Source of the DNA: Escherichia phage V18
Sequence record: NC_041937.1
Strand: one strand, 5' to 3'
DNA: 64,000 bases
Part shown: in pieces, positions 15,411 to 52,214 of the stretch
How positions within the stretch are numbered: the stretch's first letter is position 1
Layout: every line of letters begins with the position of its first letter
The notes under the pieces: model-generated
Seen by the model: the letters and a program-made list of their open reading frames with translations, nothing else
What the model was told of the DNA's origin: nothing
Databases searched by the model: none
Made by a program: the position numbers and the translations under genes

Positions 15411-15689
15411 ATGAGCTGCGAAAAATCTTTTTTCATCATCATTTACGGTAAGGATAACTGCCCACACTGTGTCAGAGCAAAAGAATTTGCAATCAGCAAA
15501 GGTCTGCCTTTTGTATATAAGACACTTGGCGATGGCTACACAAAAGAAGAGCTTATTGAGAAGTGTAGTCCAATTGTCCCCAGAACGTTGCCGCAGATCT
15601 TCTTAGAAAGCGATCTTGACAGTATCCATATAGGCGGTGCCGACGATTTCATCTCTTTTGTTAAGAATGGTTTTGGAGAGAAAAAGTGA
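15411..15689 (+). CDS. glutaredoxin-like protein (NrdH/NrdC-type)
   Basis: 92 aa; CPHC redox motif near N-terminus. Confidence 0.75.
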   Translation: MSCEKSFFIIIYGKDNCPHCVRAKEFAISKGLPFVYKTLGDGYTKEELIEKCSPIVPRTLPQIFLESDLDSIHIGGADDFISFVKNGFGEKK

Positions 15690-16597
15690 AAGTTGTAAAA
15701 CGGGACGGTAGAGAAGAGTTCTATAACGGAATTAAGGTGATCAAGGCGGCAGAGTCCGCCTTACTTGAGTCTGGACATACTGAAGAAGAAGCTTACCGGA
15801 TCGCCTGCGCGGTTAATGAAGTTGTTGCTAACAATCTACCAACCGACCAGTGCACGATCTCTGTAAAAAATATCCATATCCTTGTTGAAGATGCTCTTAT
15901 GGATATGGGTTTAAAATGTGCAGCCAGAGAATACATCCAGTATAGACAGACAAGAGATAATAACAGAGAGGCAGGTGGAAAACTGCTTGCAGATATTAGT
16001 GGCTTCTTGGATCGAACTTGTGATGAATTTACAAAAGAAAACGCAAATAAGCCCACTAATCATGTACACACTCATCGTGACCTGCTTGCAGGCATCCTTA
16101 GCAAACACCTTGCATCAACACAGATCCTGCCAGACCGTGTTTCAGAAGAGCACAATAAAGGCTTCATCCATGTGCATGATCTTGACTACTTGATCAGTCC
16201 GTTAACAAACTGTTGTTTGGTAAATTATCCAGATATGTTGGAAAACGGATTCAACATTGGCAACGCCCATGTCAGTAAGCCGAAGTCAATAGGGGTTGCA
16301 ACAACAATCCTTAGCCAAATCTCTAGTGCGGTAGCTAGTGCTCAATATGGTGGTCAGACTATGAGCCATATTGATCATTATCTGGCACAGTATGCTGAAG
16401 CGACCTATGAGAAGAACCTTAAATTTTGCCAGGAACATTGGTTGCCAGATGCTGAGACTGTTGCAATGCAAATGACAGATAAAGACGTGTTTGACAGCAT
16501 GCAGACGTTGCTTTATCAGATCAACACACTAACCTCGGTAAACGGTAACCCCTTTTATCACATTAAGTTTAGGTTTGGACACTTCGGTCTTTGGTAG
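15686..16597 (+). CDS. nrdD: anaerobic ribonucleoside-triphosphate reductase, N-terminal segment
   Basis: ATP-cone N-terminus and NrdD-like body; frame lost near 16547, the last residues before the stop are out-of-frame. Confidence 0.8.
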   Translation: MKVVKRDGREEFYNGIKVIKAAESALLESGHTEEEAYRIACAVNEVVANNLPTDQCTISVKNIHILVEDALMDMGLKCAAREYIQYRQTRDNNREAGGKLLADISGFLDRTCDEFTKENANKPTNHVHTHRDLLAGILSKHLASTQILPDRVSEEHNKGFIHVHDLDYLISPLTNCCLVNYPDMLENGFNIGNAHVSKPKSIGVATTILSQISSAVASAQYGGQTMSHIDHYLAQYAEATYEKNLKFCQEHWLPDAETVAMQMTDKDVFDSMQTLLYQINTLTSVNGNPFYHIKFRFGHFGLW

Positions 16598-16796
16598 AAT
16601 GATTACCAAAAACTACCTGAAAGTCCACAAAATGGGTCTTGGTGAAGAACGTATTACACCTGTGTTCCCTAAAGTGCTGTTCTTCCTAGAAGAGGGTGTC
16701 AACATGAACCCTGGGGATCCTAACTACGATTTGAAACGATTAGCTCTGGAATGCTGTGCAGAACGTATCTACCTGACTTCGTATCTGTACCACTAA
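16575..16796 (+). CDS. nrdD: anaerobic ribonucleoside-triphosphate reductase, internal segment in a second frame
   Basis: GLGEERITPVFPK...GDPNYDLKRLALEC matches the NrdD core; frame lost again near 16773 and 16843. Confidence 0.6.
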   Translation: MDTSVFGRMITKNYLKVHKMGLGEERITPVFPKVLFFLEEGVNMNPGDPNYDLKRLALECCAERIYLTSYLYH

Positions 16797-16941
16797 ATAG
16801 AAAAGTGACAGGCTCGACAGATGGCAAAGTAACGAGCATGGGATATGTAGAAGTTTCTTATCGAAATATAGCGACCCTGTAACAGGCGAGGAGAAATACC
16901 TTGGCAGATTTAACTTAGGCGTTGTTAGCCTTAACCTGCCA

Positions 16942-17808
16942 ATGATTGCGGCAAAAGCTAAGACGGAAGGTGTTGATTTCTTTGCAGTTCTTGACGAATA
17001 CTTGGATCTTGCATACGAGGCTCACCTTGTAAGGGTTAATCGTCTAAAAGGAACAAAGGCGGGGCAGAACCCCATCATGTGGTGTGAAGGCGCTCTTGCT
17101 CGCCTGGATCCCGAAGAGAGTATTGATAAACTCTTCTATGACGGGTACGCTTCCATCAGTATTGGGTATATCGGTGTGTATGAAACCTGTCAGATTTTGG
17201 GTAGAGAAGGCGACAAGGCTTTAGCTCTTGGAATCCTTCAGCACATGAGAGATGCTTGTGAGCGATACAAGAAGGAAAGTAGACTAGCATTTAGCTTGTA
17301 CGGCACTCCTTCTGAGAGTCTATGCTATAAAGCTGCAACCTGTCTGGATCGTGAATATCCGGAAGTGTTGAAGCACGAGCATGAATATCTCACCAACAGT
17401 TTCCATCAGCCAGTATGGATAAATAGCTCTCCTTTTGATAAGTGGGAGTATGAGGAAGGTTTTGCTATGATCTCCTCTGGTGGCAACATCGGATACGTAG
17501 AGACACCTAACCTGAAAAACAACCTGGATGCTTTAGAGGCCCTTGTTGACTTCGGGTATAAACACATTATGTATTTTGGTATTAACCAACCTGTAGATAA
17601 ATGTCTCAAGTGTGGTTTCTCTGGTGAGTTCAGTGCAACAGCTAAAGGCTTTGTATGCCCAGAGTGTGGAAACCATGAAGAGGGAACGATCAGTGTAATT
17701 CGACGTGTGTCTGGATACCTTTCCAGTCCTAACTCCCGTCCTTACAATAAAGGTAAGCAAGCGGAAGTTATCGAGCGAGTTAAGCACTACGGAAGTTGTG
17801 GTTGCTGA
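16942..17808 (+). CDS. nrdD: anaerobic ribonucleoside-triphosphate reductase, C-terminal segment
   Basis: CLKCGF...CPECG zinc site and glycyl-radical region IRRVSGYL. Confidence 0.8.
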   Translation: MIAAKAKTEGVDFFAVLDEYLDLAYEAHLVRVNRLKGTKAGQNPIMWCEGALARLDPEESIDKLFYDGYASISIGYIGVYETCQILGREGDKALALGILQHMRDACERYKKESRLAFSLYGTPSESLCYKAATCLDREYPEVLKHEHEYLTNSFHQPVWINSSPFDKWEYEEGFAMISSGGNIGYVETPNLKNNLDALEALVDFGYKHIMYFGINQPVDKCLKCGFSGEFSATAKGFVCPECGNHEEGTISVIRRVSGYLSSPNSRPYNKGKQAEVIERVKHYGSCGC

Positions 17809-17871: not shown

Positions 17872-17988
17872 ATGTCATCAGGTATTTATAAAATTTGCAA
17901 GTGTGGTTGTCGTTGCAATCTTCGTTGGTGCAAGGCACTAGACGATTTTATTTGGCATTGCCCTAAATGTGATGCGGAGTATCTATGA
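17872..17988 (+). CDS. small cysteine-rich protein (38 aa)
   Basis: GGAGG RBS; MSSGIYKICKCGCRCNLRWCKALDDFIWHCPKCDAEYL; ATGA overlap with nrdG. Confidence 0.3.
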   Translation: MSSGIYKICKCGCRCNLRWCKALDDFIWHCPKCDAEYL

Positions 17989-18458
17989 ACATTGTCGGAT
18001 ACACAGAAATATCTTACACCGAAGGGCCAGGTATTAGAACTGCCTTGTGGGTATCTGGGTGCCCACACGCTTGCCCTGGTTGCTTTAATCAGGCATTTTG
18101 GTCAAAAGATAAGGGGAGGGAGTTCACTGAAGAAGATTTGCAAAAAATCTTGTCAGATTTAGATAACCTGTCTGTGTGCGGTATCTCTCTGCTGGGTGGA
18201 GAACCCTTAGCATACTATAATGAGCCAGATATTATTAGCCTGATGGAGAAAATTAAGGAAAAATTTGGTGACAAGAAAACTATTCTTGTATATACTGGGT
18301 TCACATTTGACCATATCTCTAGTGATGTTCTTAAACTGGCTGATATCATCATTGACGGTAAGTATGTAAAAGATTTACCAACCAAGAAACCGTTCCGAGG
18401 CAGCGATAACCAAAGAATGTTTAAAAAAGTAGCAGGCGGTTGGGTTCAGGTAGACTAG
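17985..18458 (+). CDS. nrdG: anaerobic ribonucleotide reductase activating protein (radical SAM)
   Basis: 157 aa; CPHACPGC cluster near N-terminus. Confidence 0.85.
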   Translation: MNIVGYTEISYTEGPGIRTALWVSGCPHACPGCFNQAFWSKDKGREFTEEDLQKILSDLDNLSVCGISLLGGEPLAYYNEPDIISLMEKIKEKFGDKKTILVYTGFTFDHISSDVLKLADIIIDGKYVKDLPTKKPFRGSDNQRMFKKVAGGWVQVD

Positions 18459-18461
18459 TTG

Positions 18462-18491
18462 TTGACAAAGCTTGGTTTAGATAGGTATAAT
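18462..18491 (+). promoter_or_regulatory. sigma70-like promoter (TTGACA-18-TATAAT)
   Basis: -35 at 18462-18467, -10 at 18486-18491. Confidence 0.6.
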
Positions 18492-18522
18492 TATCGTAAA
18501 ATGAAAGCAGAGGAGGTGCCAA

Positions 18523-18636
18523 ATGGCTAAAAAAGCCTTGAAGAAGGCGTACAAAAAAGAGATTGCGCTTGAGCTTAAGAAAAAACACAAGCGTGAAAAG
18601 AAACATCATGAAGATGAAGAGGGGGTGCAACAGTGA
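18523..18636 (+). CDS. small lysine-rich protein (37 aa)
   Basis: GAGGAGG RBS 7 nt upstream; MAKKALKKAYKKEIALELKKKHKREKKHHEDEEGVQQ. Confidence 0.3.
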   Translation: MAKKALKKAYKKEIALELKKKHKREKKHHEDEEGVQQ

Positions 18637-18983
18637 CACAAGAACGTATCGATTTGGCTAATAAGTTTGTAGATCTCATTTTGCCACGGTTAGTTACTCA
18701 ACATGCAGATGCTATTTCTACTAATCTTGATGGCTTACGCCTAATGCTGAATCGCACAGATGACCCTCGTATTCGGGCTGATTTAGAAGCCTCTGCCAAC
18801 AAACTGGAAAAGTTCTTGCAAGTAGACACGCAAGAAGCCTTACACAAGATTATGGTGGAAGGTTTCTCTAAAGAATTTACCATTAAAGAGCTTAAGGAGC
18901 TGATCCACCAAGAAGAGATGAATATCCGAGTTCAGGCTGTTGCAAGCAGCATGGAAGCGGCTATTGAAAAACTGTTGCAGTAA
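18633..18983 (+). CDS. hypothetical protein
   Basis: 116 aa ORF, GTG start overlapping previous stop. Confidence 0.4.
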   Translation: MTQERIDLANKFVDLILPRLVTQHADAISTNLDGLRLMLNRTDDPRIRADLEASANKLEKFLQVDTQEALHKIMVEGFSKEFTIKELKELIHQEEMNIRVQAVASSMEAAIEKLLQ

Positions 18984-19021: not shown

Positions 19022-19387
19022 ATGGGTCGAGCTAAAGAAACAAAACGCATGCGTGATGAAGCTAGAGAGGCTCGCAAATCTGATCGCCTGCGTAAGGCTG
19101 CTGAGAAATTTGCTGACGAACGAGAGCACACTGCTCCAGCTCTCCGACCAATGAATAAGAAGCAGCAAAAGTATCTTGATTACCTAGGGTCGCGTAAAAT
19201 TATCATTGTAAACGGAGTGTTTGGGTCTGGTAAAACATTCATGGCATCTGCTATGCAGGTGACCTTCTGCGTAAGAATGAAATTGATAAGATCATTGTTG
19301 CACGTCCTTACGTTCAGACAGGAAAGACTTCAGGATTTAAACCTGGAAATGCAATGCAGAAACTGTGGCCCTATCTTCGAAGCATGA
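19022..19387 (+). CDS. phoH: PhoH-like ATPase, N-terminal segment (frame broken near 19255)
   Basis: Walker A GVFGSGKT; sequence after AMQ is out-of-frame. Confidence 0.7.
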   Translation: MGRAKETKRMRDEAREARKSDRLRKAAEKFADEREHTAPALRPMNKKQQKYLDYLGSRKIIIVNGVFGSGKTFMASAMQVTFCVRMKLIRSLLHVLTFRQERLQDLNLEMQCRNCGPIFEA

Positions 19388-19809
19388 TGGACACGATTTG
19401 TCGTCGTGTTGGCAAAGGTGCTTTTGCCGCAATGCTGGGAGACGGTCAGAACAGCCGTATCGAGATTTGTGAAGTTGAAAGCATTCGTGGTCGTAGTTTC
19501 GATGAGCGATGCTTTGTCCTGATTGACGAGGCACAGCAAACTAACCCTGAAGAAATGTTGTCAATTATCACAAGGATCTCTGATCAAGCCACCCTTGTAA
19601 TTATGGGTGATAATAGCCAACGTGACATCCCTGGTAAATCTGGCCTTGCATGGGTGACGGATTTCTTTACTCGTCATCCAGATCCTGAGGTTGGAATGAT
19701 CAGCTTTGATAGTCCAGACGATGTCGTTCGTTCTGGGTTGGGTCGTCAGATCGCACTCAATCTTATTGAGGATCGTGCAAATCATATTTGGACCCCTGTT
19801 TCCGAGTAA
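19354..19809 (+). CDS. phoH: PhoH-like ATPase, C-terminal segment
   Basis: VLIDEAQ (Walker B) and IMGDNSQRDIPG match PhoH; this frame extends upstream to ~19258. Confidence 0.7.
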   Translation: MQKLWPYLRSMMDTICRRVGKGAFAAMLGDGQNSRIEICEVESIRGRSFDERCFVLIDEAQQTNPEEMLSIITRISDQATLVIMGDNSQRDIPGKSGLAWVTDFFTRHPDPEVGMISFDSPDDVVRSGLGRQIALNLIEDRANHIWTPVSE

Positions 19810-19853: not shown

Positions 19854-19882
19854 TTGACAAATAGGTAAGCTTTAGATATTAT
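19854..19882 (+). promoter_or_regulatory. sigma70-like promoter (TTGACA-17-TATTAT)
   Basis: -35 at 19854-19859, -10 at 19877-19882. Confidence 0.6.
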
Positions 19883-19910: not shown

Positions 19911-20222
19911 ATGGCTACAATACAAGAGAAACTGAATAAAATATACTGCCTGTTTGTCTATAACGGCGAGACAATTTTGGCAAATAAAGGATCCAAGAAT
20001 GTGTGGACCAAGGACAGCGGTGGTAATATAATTAACTTAGCGTTGCTACGTGAGCGCCGACACAGATTCTTTATCGAGTCTCGAATTATTGAAAGCAGCA
20101 CTTGCTACAGAACAGGCGATAAAGTAATTGTTGACAATGATACGTGGTATGTGGTAGACTGGCAATCATTGAGTTGTGATGCTTCTGACAATCGTAAGTA
20201 TTCCATAGTGATTGCTAAATAA
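19911..20222 (+). CDS. hypothetical protein
   Basis: 103 aa ORF downstream of promoter. Confidence 0.4.
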   Translation: MATIQEKLNKIYCLFVYNGETILANKGSKNVWTKDSGGNIINLALLRERRHRFFIESRIIESSTCYRTGDKVIVDNDTWYVVDWQSLSCDASDNRKYSIVIAK

Positions 20223-42417: not shown

Positions 42418-42755
42418 CTCGTTTTCTTCCAGCTCCGCAAGCTCTTCTTTTGCTTCTTCCAACCCTGTCTGTAATTCCTGGTATTCTTCATCGTCCTCAA
42501 TATCCAGCTGTCGATGTAGTCGCTAAATCCGCAGCGGTAAGCGATAGGATCTAGCTCCTTGAGGATACGCGACGGAAGAAAAGAAATGTTTCCGATCATA
42601 ATTTCGCCGTAGATCTCGTCTAACCATTCATCATAGTTTTCGTCGTACTTGTCCTCGTCGATTTCAAAGTTATCGATCTTATTCTCAAGGTCTGCGATCT
42701 GTTTTTTCAGCGCGGCGATCTGCATGGCTTTTTCTGCGGCGGTCATAGTAGTCAT
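42393..42755 (-). CDS. hypothetical coiled-coil acidic protein (3' end probably frameshifted)
   Basis: tracked frame ends in a K/R-rich tail; an alternative frame gives an acidic end LDIEDDEEYQELQTGLEEAKEELAELEENE with stop at 42416. Confidence 0.4.
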   Translation of the reverse strand: MTTMTAAEKAMQIAALKKQIADLENKIDNFEIDEDKYDENYDEWLDEIYGEIMIGNISFLPSRILKELDPIAYRCGFSDYIDSWILRTMKNTRNYRQGWKKQKKSLRSWKKTSKLIFRWP

Positions 42756-42806: not shown

Positions 42807-42834
42807 ATTATAGCGATTTAAGTTAGCTTGTCAA
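42807..42834 (-). promoter_or_regulatory. sigma70-like promoter (TTGACA-16-TATAAT)
   Basis: plus-strand tgtcaa at 42829-42834 and attata at 42807-42812. Confidence 0.5.
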
Positions 42835-46710: not shown

Positions 46711-46773
46711 AATACATCGCTCTCTGTTAGTTTATGCGTATATTATACACTGCAGTCTTCAGATGTCAACCTC

Positions 46774-51882: not shown

Positions 51883-52214
51883 TACGCTTCCTCGTCGTCT
51901 AAGTAATCATCAAGAGAGGTGAAGATTTCACCGAAGTATTCTAAGATTTCTAGCTCACGTGTGGTGCAGCAAACATAATCTCCTTGGTCGTCCTTAATAG
52001 TGGCCTCTTTACCCAGAACATCTACTTCAAATTCATCGTTCAGCAGGACGGCCCCTGTGTAAACTTTGTCAGCTGTGCAGTCCCGAAAAGCAGAGTCCTT
52101 TTCCAGATAGTCTGGCTTAACCTTGGCTTTAATTCGTTGATATTGTTTGGTCATTGCTGTGGTCTCCTTTCGTTTTGATAGGGCCATTATATTAGGCCCC
52201 ATCACTGTTGTCAA
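51882..52214 (-). CDS. hypothetical protein (paralog of 52218-52472)
   Basis: shared KP(D/E)...D-AF(R/K)DCT...KDD(Q/E)GD. Confidence 0.4.
   Translation of the reverse strand: MTTVMGPNIMALSKRKETTAMTKQYQRIKAKVKPDYLEKDSAFRDCTADKVYTGAVLLNDEFEVDVLGKEATIKDDQGDYVCCTTRELEILEYFGEIFTSLDDYLDDEEA

Follow-up and report, generated by a model that had tools for sequence, protein, structure and literature searches.

The window (the whole 64,000-nucleotide stretch of DNA that was analysed) contains, directly downstream of nrdG, a series of plus-strand features that begins with a promoter and runs through two short genes towards a gene for a PhoH-like ATPase. The promoter consists of a −35 hexamer (TTGACA, 18462..18467), a spacer of 18 nt (18468..18485) and a −10 hexamer (TATAAT, 18486..18491), and its first base lies 3 nt past the nrdG stop codon (TAG, 18456-18458). 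If transcription is assumed to start ~7 nt past the −10 hexamer, the predicted 5′ untranslated region (UTR) is short (18498..18522), and it contains the Shine-Dalgarno (SD) sequence GAGGAGG (18510-18516) located 6 nt before an ATG. This start codon opens a reading frame of 37 codons (18523..18636, with the stop codon TGA at 18634-18636) that encodes the basic protein MAKKALKKAYKKEIALELKKKHKREKKHHEDEEGVQQ. The second gene (18633..18983) encodes a partner protein of 116 aa, and the likely third cistron is that of the PhoH-like ATPase (19022..19809), which is split in the window by a 1-nt deletion near 19251. The initial annotation had proposed the TTGACA-18-TATAAT promoter, the GAGGAGG motif and the 37-codon ORF, and every one of these elements was found in its proposed place.

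The region matched 119 records, and its identity to the best-matching rV5-like Escherichia phages (genus Vequintavirus) was 97.5-98.3%, with phages Murica and JeffSchatz ~98% identical to the window. The order of the locus (nrdG, small ORF, gene 119, phoH) is the same as in the type phage rV5, whose GenBank record (DQ832317) annotates a 'Sigma70-type promoter; P118' and an 'ORF 118, hypothetical protein' (ABI79183.1) at the homologous position. The window is that of an rV5-like Vequintavirus, its promoter is rV5 P118 and its small ORF is rV5 ORF 118. Both were published with the rV5 genome by Kropinski et al. 2013 (PMC3606486), where P118 is listed in Table S4 (88816..88845, sequence TTGACAAAGCTTTGTTAAGTTGGTTATAAT) as one of 33 sigma-70-type promoters predicted from sequence across the genome, and where Table S3 describes the product of gene 118 as a protein of 37 aa, 4482 Da and pI 9.8 with no homologues, and that of gene 119 as a protein of 116 aa and pI 5.1. 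The mass spectrometry in the same paper covers the phage particle only (PMC3606486).

Comparison of the window with rV5 revealed a few base differences in the spacer and 5′ UTR, including one 2-nt indel, and identical promoter hexamers. The encoded 37-aa protein is the same as in Murica and JeffSchatz and differs from that of rV5 by one change, at residue 28 (H vs Y). A 37-aa CDS is annotated in Murica, JeffSchatz, Gotham and other annotated records that were retrieved, the Gotham record additionally carrying a PhagePromoter prediction, while Alma is annotated with a frameshifted CDS of 45 aa. Members of PHROG 7670, the family to which the protein belongs, include Murica gp106, JeffSchatz bas55_0178, PVP-SE1 gp143, KB57_139 and Hena1 gp045, annotated as 'hypothetical' throughout. 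The promoter and the gene are thus a rediscovery, published in 2013 and represented by an existing PHROG family. The statement that the ORF had been missed by a 60-aa cutoff holds for the mechanical list of ORFs, but not for the database records, since the CDS is annotated in rV5 and in many of its relatives.

The two hexamers of P118 match the sigma-70 consensus at 12 of 12 positions and are separated by an 18-nt spacer. Within the 64-kb window, four perfect sites of the form TTGACA-N16-18-TATAAT were observed, compared with 0.06 expected from dinucleotide-preserving shuffles (~70-fold enrichment), indicating that the match at P118 is not due to chance. The other three perfect sites all lie upstream of minus-strand genes; for two of them these are ordinary genes (120 and 90 aa), and downstream of the third a search for a start codon with a Shine-Dalgarno sequence was negative.

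To assess conservation at the base level, 15 Vequintavirus genomes were aligned and variable columns were counted for the promoter and the ORF. Both hexamers were invariant in 15/15 genomes (0/12 variable columns), and the −35 hexamer agrees with the rV5 annotation and with Table S4 of the genome paper (PMC3606486). Variable columns amounted to 11/18 in the spacer, whose length was always 18, and to 10/19 in the UTR. Hexamers and spacing that are fixed while the sequence of the spacer varies are the pattern expected of a selected promoter. Upstream of the SD the UTR was variable and contained a 2-nt indel; the SD itself did not vary, except for one inserted G in a single genome (L013). Judged by this alignment, the hexamers of P118, their spacing and the strong ribosome-binding site are demonstrably under selection, in support of the promoter as proposed.

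In three distant lineages, the homologous gene is likewise preceded by a comparable promoter: TTGACA-17-TATGAT in L007 and KB57, and TTGACA-17-TATCTT in L033. No promoter was found directly 5′ of the peptide gene in L024, Hena1 and L031, where the gap to the preceding gene is 22-32 nt. The peptide gene is therefore kept in several lineages without a promoter of its own, and P118 is not essential to the module: the promoter is a frequent but optional addition, and the conserved unit is the pair formed by the peptide gene and its partner. No terminator was found between nrdG and P118 in the window, so P118 probably adds to transcription that reads through from nrdG. A search of the literature by titles and abstracts returned no Vequintavirus transcriptome.

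No significant RNA structure was detected over 18498-18600 (z = −1.5), and the SD is unpaired in the predicted minimum-free-energy fold. A terminator-like hairpin on the minus strand (18548-18535) was rejected, because there is no minus-strand gene for it to terminate, its stem is broken in L013 and it adds no significant folding energy. An attenuation or ribosome-stalling leader was rejected likewise, given the lack of significant RNA structure, the loss of the hairpin at 18535-18548 in L013 and the strong constraint on the peptide sequence.

The small ORF evolves as coding sequence. Among the 15 Vequintavirus genomes, 14 of its 18 variable columns fall at the third codon position, and the codon variants comprise 11 synonymous and 6 non-synonymous changes over 18.7 and 92.3 sites, respectively, giving a ratio of ~0.11. 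Between genera, synonymous sites in the first 19 codons are saturated (pS 0.74-1.05) and pN is 0.21-0.34, with many exchanges of lysine for arginine. An ORF of 72 aa on the opposite strand (18421-18639) was considered as the true coding sequence and set aside, since in this in-register antisense frame the same changes fall at the first codon position, and the substitutions fit the plus-strand frame. By this pattern of substitution, the 37-codon ORF is demonstrably a protein-coding gene under purifying selection, and the peptide gene proposed by the initial annotation is borne out both by the bias towards third positions and by conservation across genera.

The protein matched the profile of its family over its full length (phrog_7670, E = 2e-20, with residues 1-37 aligned to positions 1-37 of the 46-position profile). 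Homologues were found in more than 10 Vequintavirinae-like lineages, comprising phages of Escherichia, Klebsiella, Proteus, Salmonella and Erwinia together with metagenomic contigs. The homologues of L024 (MAKKLLKKLYKRELAMEHKKKRKQNDKSKDYFEEEFK), L007 (MSKKSRKAKRAYDKEFKLEIKRLKKAAEERKRKEKEEEDEL), KB57 and Mydo (MSKKALRKAYTKELALELRGKKPKNKRSSDEELQQLAADAAARGGY) and Hena1 (MSKRTLRKAYQKELAMALRTTKRGRKDRRENDNSFVAAGERDGWEPTNG) illustrate their range, and further variants occur in PVP-SE1, GEC_vB_MG, pEa_SNUABM_56 and many metagenomic contigs. The profile search gave 41 clusters at 90% identity, and seven related loci, six distant and one close, were found in IMG/VR. When 1.84 billion representative proteins were searched exhaustively with an HMM, only eight clusters were returned, all of 32-49 aa, from which it follows that the family is narrow and never part of a larger protein. 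Within the reach of these searches, the gp118 family is confined to Vequintavirinae-like phages, has no cellular relatives and does not occur as a domain of any larger protein.

The gene that follows is a constant companion of the peptide gene. The 116-aa partner corresponds to rV5 gene 119 (PHROG 7650; match to phrog_7650, E = 2.5e-57), and a gp119-family gene of 114-137 aa comes immediately after the small ORF in all lineages inspected. This arrangement of peptide and partner was seen in L024, L007, KB57, Mydo, Hena1, L028-L031, L032 and L033; for the last two, the homology of the partner was assigned by hhalign with probabilities of 78.5% (L032) and 97.8% (L033).

In the window the two genes share four bases, GTGA (18633..18636), in which the GTG that starts the partner runs into the TGA that ends the small ORF. 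An SD-like sequence for the partner, GAGGGGG (18619..18625), lies inside codons 33-35 of the small ORF (E-G-V), and equivalent purine-rich motifs are found just before the partner start in L024, L007, KB57 and Hena1, in each case within the final codons of the small ORF. Stop and start codons overlap by 1-11 nt in 10 of the 11 non-rV5 lineages inspected, the exception being L029, in which they are separated by a gap of 9 nt. Overlapping codons and a downstream SD within the upstream ORF are the sequence hallmarks of a translationally coupled pair, and from these we infer that the peptide gene would be the first cistron of such a pair. Because the SD of the partner is encoded in the last codons of the small ORF, the Glu/Gly-rich tail of the peptide may be partly shaped by this dual coding. 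It had been proposed that the promoter drives the 37-aa peptide. The peptide gene does lie directly downstream, but it is not alone there, for its stop codon TGA shares bases with the GTG that opens the 116-aa gene, and the PhoH gene follows. The small ORF is the first cistron of an operon and not the sole target of P118, and the locus is described more aptly as a coupled two-protein module headed by this cistron than as a single peptide with a promoter reserved for it.

The PhoH gene lies downstream of the pair in the 11 lineages with contigs that reach that far (those of L030 and L032 end too early for a judgement). In Mydovirus, Henunavirus and L033 the pair is separated from PhoH by one or two genes, among them one for an endolysin. 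In L007 the pair is set apart from nrdG by two unrelated genes, and the pair and its promoter are still together. Searches of Pfam with the phage PhoH protein matched only PhoH and AAA-type ATPase families, and no PIN domain was reported. A link of the pair to lysis, to which the endolysin gene after the pair in Mydovirus and Henunavirus had pointed, was dropped, as transmembrane segments are absent from both proteins and no endolysin gene adjoins the pair in the rV5-type, L024 and L007 loci.

The peptide is divided into two parts that differ in conservation and in predicted structure. Codons 1-20 (18523..18582) encode a conserved amphipathic basic helix, recognisable throughout the family by M-[AS]-K-[KR]-x-L-[KR]-K-[AL]-Y-x-[KR]-E-[IL]-A-[LM]-x-[LH]-[KR] and the run rich in lysine and arginine that comes next; the window peptide conforms to this pattern. 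Residues M1, K3, L6, K8, A9, Y10, K12, E13, A15 and L18 are invariant or nearly so in the family alignments. Across eight lineages with paired genes, mean identity was 0.59 for residues 1-20, a value somewhat inflated by composition in a K/R-rich 20-mer, compared with 0.28 for the remaining residues, 0.33 for the partner protein and 0.57 for PhoH. By this measure, the N-terminal helix is conserved like an enzyme and about twice as conserved as the partner protein.

AlphaFold2 (AF2), run with an alignment of 34 sequences, predicted a single helix spanning residues 2-35, with pLDDT of ~90 for residues 1-20, 62 for residues 21-30 and 50 for the tail. Net charge in the gp118 family is +5 to +7, divided between +8 to +10 on the first 28 residues and −2 to −4 on the tail; the window peptide has a net charge of +6 and a pI of 9.8. 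A type I toxin or small membrane protein was rejected, as the peptide has no hydrophobic stretch and is predicted to be a soluble amphipathic helix. The partner was predicted by AF2 with high confidence (pLDDT 94.2) to consist of four helices (3-41, 45-61, 64-81 and 84-115). It is mildly acidic, with a pI of 5.2 in the window, and net charges of 0 to −6 and pI values of 4.8-6.6 across its family.

At the border between the two parts of the peptide gene lies a run of six adenines (18580..18585), preceded by AAG and making up lysine codons 20-21, whose length varies. The loss of one base from this run in Alma leads to the frameshifted product of 45 aa, and the same form is present in other assemblies (the P0107 cluster); in P0103 an in-frame insertion at the run adds two lysines. 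The frameshifted variants retain only residues 1-20. Either the C-terminal half and the exact coupling are dispensable, or these forms are homopolymer sequencing errors.

Searches for distant homologues placed neither protein in a characterised family. The peptide and its profile gave no meaningful match in Pfam, NCBIfam or the sequences of the PDB, and on the grounds that it matched no family profile, identification as a small basic ribosomal protein (bL34-36, bS21 and the like) or as a known nucleic-acid-binding domain was rejected. Neither protein was matched by profile searches of PDB sequences; for the peptide, the top result was a 14-residue chance match to a GTP-binding protein (E = 0.47). 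When the predicted partner fold was compared with the PDB, no structure was found at E ≤ 0.001, the best being the DUF2059 protein PA0856 (TM 0.53, E 1.3), a generic helical bundle; in BFVD the fold matched uncharacterised proteins only, and the significant ones belong to the partner's own family. PADLOC returned no match for three variants of the small protein and only a sub-threshold one for the partner (Cas8g, E = 0.016), and with no valid match for either protein a toxin-antitoxin, defence or anti-defence module was not retained. Weak matches to Phage_TAC_19, Endonuc_Holl, S30AE and Cas8g in Pfam, NCBIfam and PADLOC were all far below cut-offs and were disregarded.

The reading that we consider probable is that the locus comprises gene 118 and the host-type promoter P118 of an rV5-like Vequintavirus, with gene 118 coupled to gp119. 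We are highly confident of the genetic anatomy of this module, and only tentatively propose how it might act. Host RNA polymerase would fire P118, probably early in infection, and transcription from P118 together with read-through from nrdG would yield mRNA for gp118, gp119 and PhoH. Ribosomes terminating on the small ORF would then re-initiate at the overlapping weak GTG, such that gp118 and gp119 would be made together and in proportion. The peptide would adopt a single alpha-helix, of which residues 1-20, followed by a patch of lysine and arginine, may be the functional part; an amphipathic face formed by L6, A9/Y10, I/L14, L16 and L18 would be set among lysine and arginine side chains. It is possible that this basic helix and gp119 act jointly, either in a complex or with the helix as a chaperoned ligand, and that their target is a polyanionic one conserved in Enterobacterales hosts, either nucleic acid or machinery bound to nucleic acid. 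The roughly twofold higher conservation of the helix relative to gp119 suggests constraint not by the partner alone but also by something that does not co-evolve with the phage, for example nucleic acid or a conserved host machine. Nucleic-acid binding or inhibition of a host factor, as raised by the initial annotation, would fit the charge of +8 to +10 on residues 1-28 and the enzyme-like conservation of residues 1-20, although neither homology nor fold searches lent it support. A stronger version, which we think doubtful, casts the N-terminal 20-residue helix as a host-targeting 'warhead' directed at the ribosome, RNA polymerase, nucleoid proteins or RNA, and gp119 as its co-translated chaperone or neutraliser; binding to such an invariant host machine would then account for the conservation of the helix across phages of Escherichia, Klebsiella, Salmonella, Proteus and Erwinia. 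If true, the Vequintavirinae would possess a host-takeover module of two proteins that is new and peculiar to them.

Several alternative explanations were weighed against this model. That the ORF is a chance frame or annotation artefact in an AT stretch rich in lysine codons, beside a fortuitous promoter, is what its shortness and low complexity would suggest, and the 72-aa antisense ORF spans the same stretch; this explanation is effectively refuted by the codon-position bias in favour of the plus-strand frame, by conservation of the family across genera, and by the ~70-fold enrichment of perfect promoters in the window and the invariance of the P118 hexamers. Another alternative is that the small ORF is purely a leader for translational coupling, delivering ribosomes to the weak GTG of the 116-aa gene through a peptide that has no function of its own. 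The GTGA overlap, its conservation in nearly all lineages, the partner SD inside the small ORF and the GTG start of the window partner are all as such a leader would have them, and the C-terminal half of the peptide is indeed poorly conserved (0.28) and predicted with low confidence by AF2. A leader would have no need, however, for residues 1-20 to be conserved as protein (0.59) despite saturated synonymous sites (pS ~0.9-1.0), or for L6, K8, A9, Y10, K12, E13, A15 and L18 to be nearly invariant; moreover, the partner has an ATG and its own SD in the other lineages compared, and so should not need a leader. We regard this alternative as quite improbable.

The conservation that speaks against a mere leader could equally be claimed for an effector of host takeover that acts autonomously, its basic helix binding the ribosome, RNA polymerase, the nucleoid or RNA without gp119, with the adjacency of the two genes reflecting shared timing. 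Conservation of the helix at about twice the level of gp119, and at that of PhoH, is compatible with a target that evolves independently of the phage, and the charge of +8 to +10 on the first 28 residues and the host-type promoter point in the same direction. Against this, the pair is never split in the lineages inspected, even where its surroundings differ (L007), and the peptide resembles no known effector, no ribosomal protein and no family of nucleic-acid-binding proteins, making an autonomous role rather unlikely. The constant neighbour further downstream raises one more alternative, a toxin-antitoxin-like or PhoH-regulatory module with the small protein as regulator of the PhoH ATPase, by analogy with phoAT-phoH2. 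PhoH lies downstream of the pair in all 11 lineages with sufficiently long contigs, and the mycobacterial PhoH2 toxin-antitoxin system provides a precedent with a small upstream ORF. It is gp119 rather than PhoH, nevertheless, that the small ORF overlaps; in Mydovirus, Henunavirus and L033 the pair and PhoH are separated by one or two genes, an endolysin gene among them, and the phage PhoH has only PhoH and AAA-type ATPase matches in Pfam, with no PIN domain reported. As the small protein has no PADLOC match, that of the partner is far below threshold, and all loci come from one phage group in which synteny may be simple inheritance, we hold a module of this kind to be highly unlikely.

Comparison with known systems places the preferred model, a coupled pair in which the helix acts together with gp119, in context. 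Small proteins made early by lytic phages and used in host takeover include T7 Gp2, an inhibitor of RNA polymerase, the products of T4 early genes, and LUZ24 gp4/Mip. Like these, gp118 is very small, phage-specific, expressed from a host-type promoter and without cellular homologues, and by analogy it is a plausible binder of a host macromolecule; unlike them, gp118 invariably occurs as one member of a coupled pair of proteins, and there is no similarity in sequence or fold. Coupled gene pairs with ATGA, TAATG or GTGA junctions are exemplified by trpE-trpD and trpB-trpA of E. coli. Genes 118 and 119 resemble these in their four-base GTGA overlap, embedded downstream SD and weak start, and differ in that their coupling is deduced from sequence only and in that L029 has a gap of 9 nt. 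In the mycobacterial phoAT-phoH2 locus, a PhoH2 toxin-antitoxin system, a small ORF lies upstream of a PhoH-family protein. The likeness is limited to a small ORF in an operon with a PhoH-family ATPase: the phage PhoH has no reported PIN domain, the small ORF is not next to phoH, there is no homology, and genes are inserted between them in some lineages.

The value of the locus as a discovery is small, given its annotation in DQ832317, its publication in 2013 and its existing PHROG family. What is added here is that gene 118 is a true gene rather than annotation noise, that residues 1-20 of its product match an ATPase in their conservation across several genera, and that the peptide never occurs without its four-helix partner and has no relatives outside Vequintavirinae-like phages. 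Phages of the rV5 type are common in collections for the biocontrol of E. coli O157 and for phage therapy, and with such wide use a conserved pair of genes, often provided with its own promoter, is a reasonable, although not urgent, target for functional study.

Besides P118, the sigma-70-type promoter of the 37-aa lysine-rich small ORF, the window contains three perfect TTGACA-N16-18-TATAAT promoters, all of them on the minus strand. The match at 42807-42834 is followed by an SD-preceded gene of 120 aa starting at 42755, and that at 52186-52214 by an SD-preceded 90-aa gene starting at 52154. For the third, an exact consensus match at 46742-46769, no obvious SD-preceded start was found within 200 nt. 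On the plus strand, an 11/12 promoter (TTGACA-17-TATTAT, 19854-19882) lies directly 3′ of phoH, ahead of a 103-aa gene of unknown function (19911-20222, PHROG 5456), and the record of the related phage Gotham carries an annotated predicted promoter at the equivalent site. The P118 unit (small ORF, gp119 and, as likely third cistron, PhoH) probably ends at this promoter.

In other lineages the region upstream of the small ORF takes different forms. KB57 and L033, distant lineages that both have a promoter ahead of the small ORF, carry a GC-rich hairpin in the 5′ UTR, downstream of the -10 hexamer and ahead of the SD (KB57, 1778-1805; L033, 893-914, GGGCCTGT-actgaa-ACAGGCCC), whereas the rV5-type UTR lacks such a structure. 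The hairpin might serve in mRNA stabilisation or regulation. Three related lineages (L028, L029 and L030) are without an intergenic promoter before the small ORF; in all three, an 11/12 match, TTGACA-17-TATGAT, lies towards the 3′ end of nrdG, within its coding sequence and 91 nt ahead of the small ORF. This match may act as an internal promoter, or it may reflect codon conservation.

The small ORF itself contains an A6 run (18580-18585) whose length differs between relatives. Phage Alma has a -1 nt frameshift at this run that yields a 45-aa product, the same frameshift and product length are found in the P0107 cluster from other assemblies, and P0103 has two additional lysines inserted in frame. 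This variation could be either homopolymer sequencing error or real slippage.

Two larger genes, nrdD (15686-17808) and phoH (19022-19809), are in pieces in the window but whole in relatives. Relative to the sequences of Murica, JeffSchatz and Gotham, three indels break the nrdD frame (-2 nt at about 16545, -1 nt at about 16771, +2 nt at about 16843) and one breaks that of phoH (-1 nt at about 19251); no homopolymer is present at these sites. Since both frames are fragmented here and unbroken in relatives, either nrdD and phoH are pseudogenes or NC_041937.1 contains assembly errors at these points.

Another gene too short for the 60-aa cutoff (17872-17988, plus strand) is placed between nrdD and nrdG, overlapping the start of the latter. 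Its 38-aa Cys-rich product, MSSGIYKICKCGCRCNLRWCKALDDFIWHCPKCDAEYL, looks like a zinc ribbon, matches phrog_20137 ('ribonucleotide reductase', E = 3e-31) and is kept in L024-type phages.

Finally, 19 unannotated GenBank records (MG0656xx) titled 'Campylobacter phage', with C. jejuni as the stated host, share about 93-99% identity with E. coli rV5-like phages across this region. These records probably represent mislabelled or contaminating coliphages.
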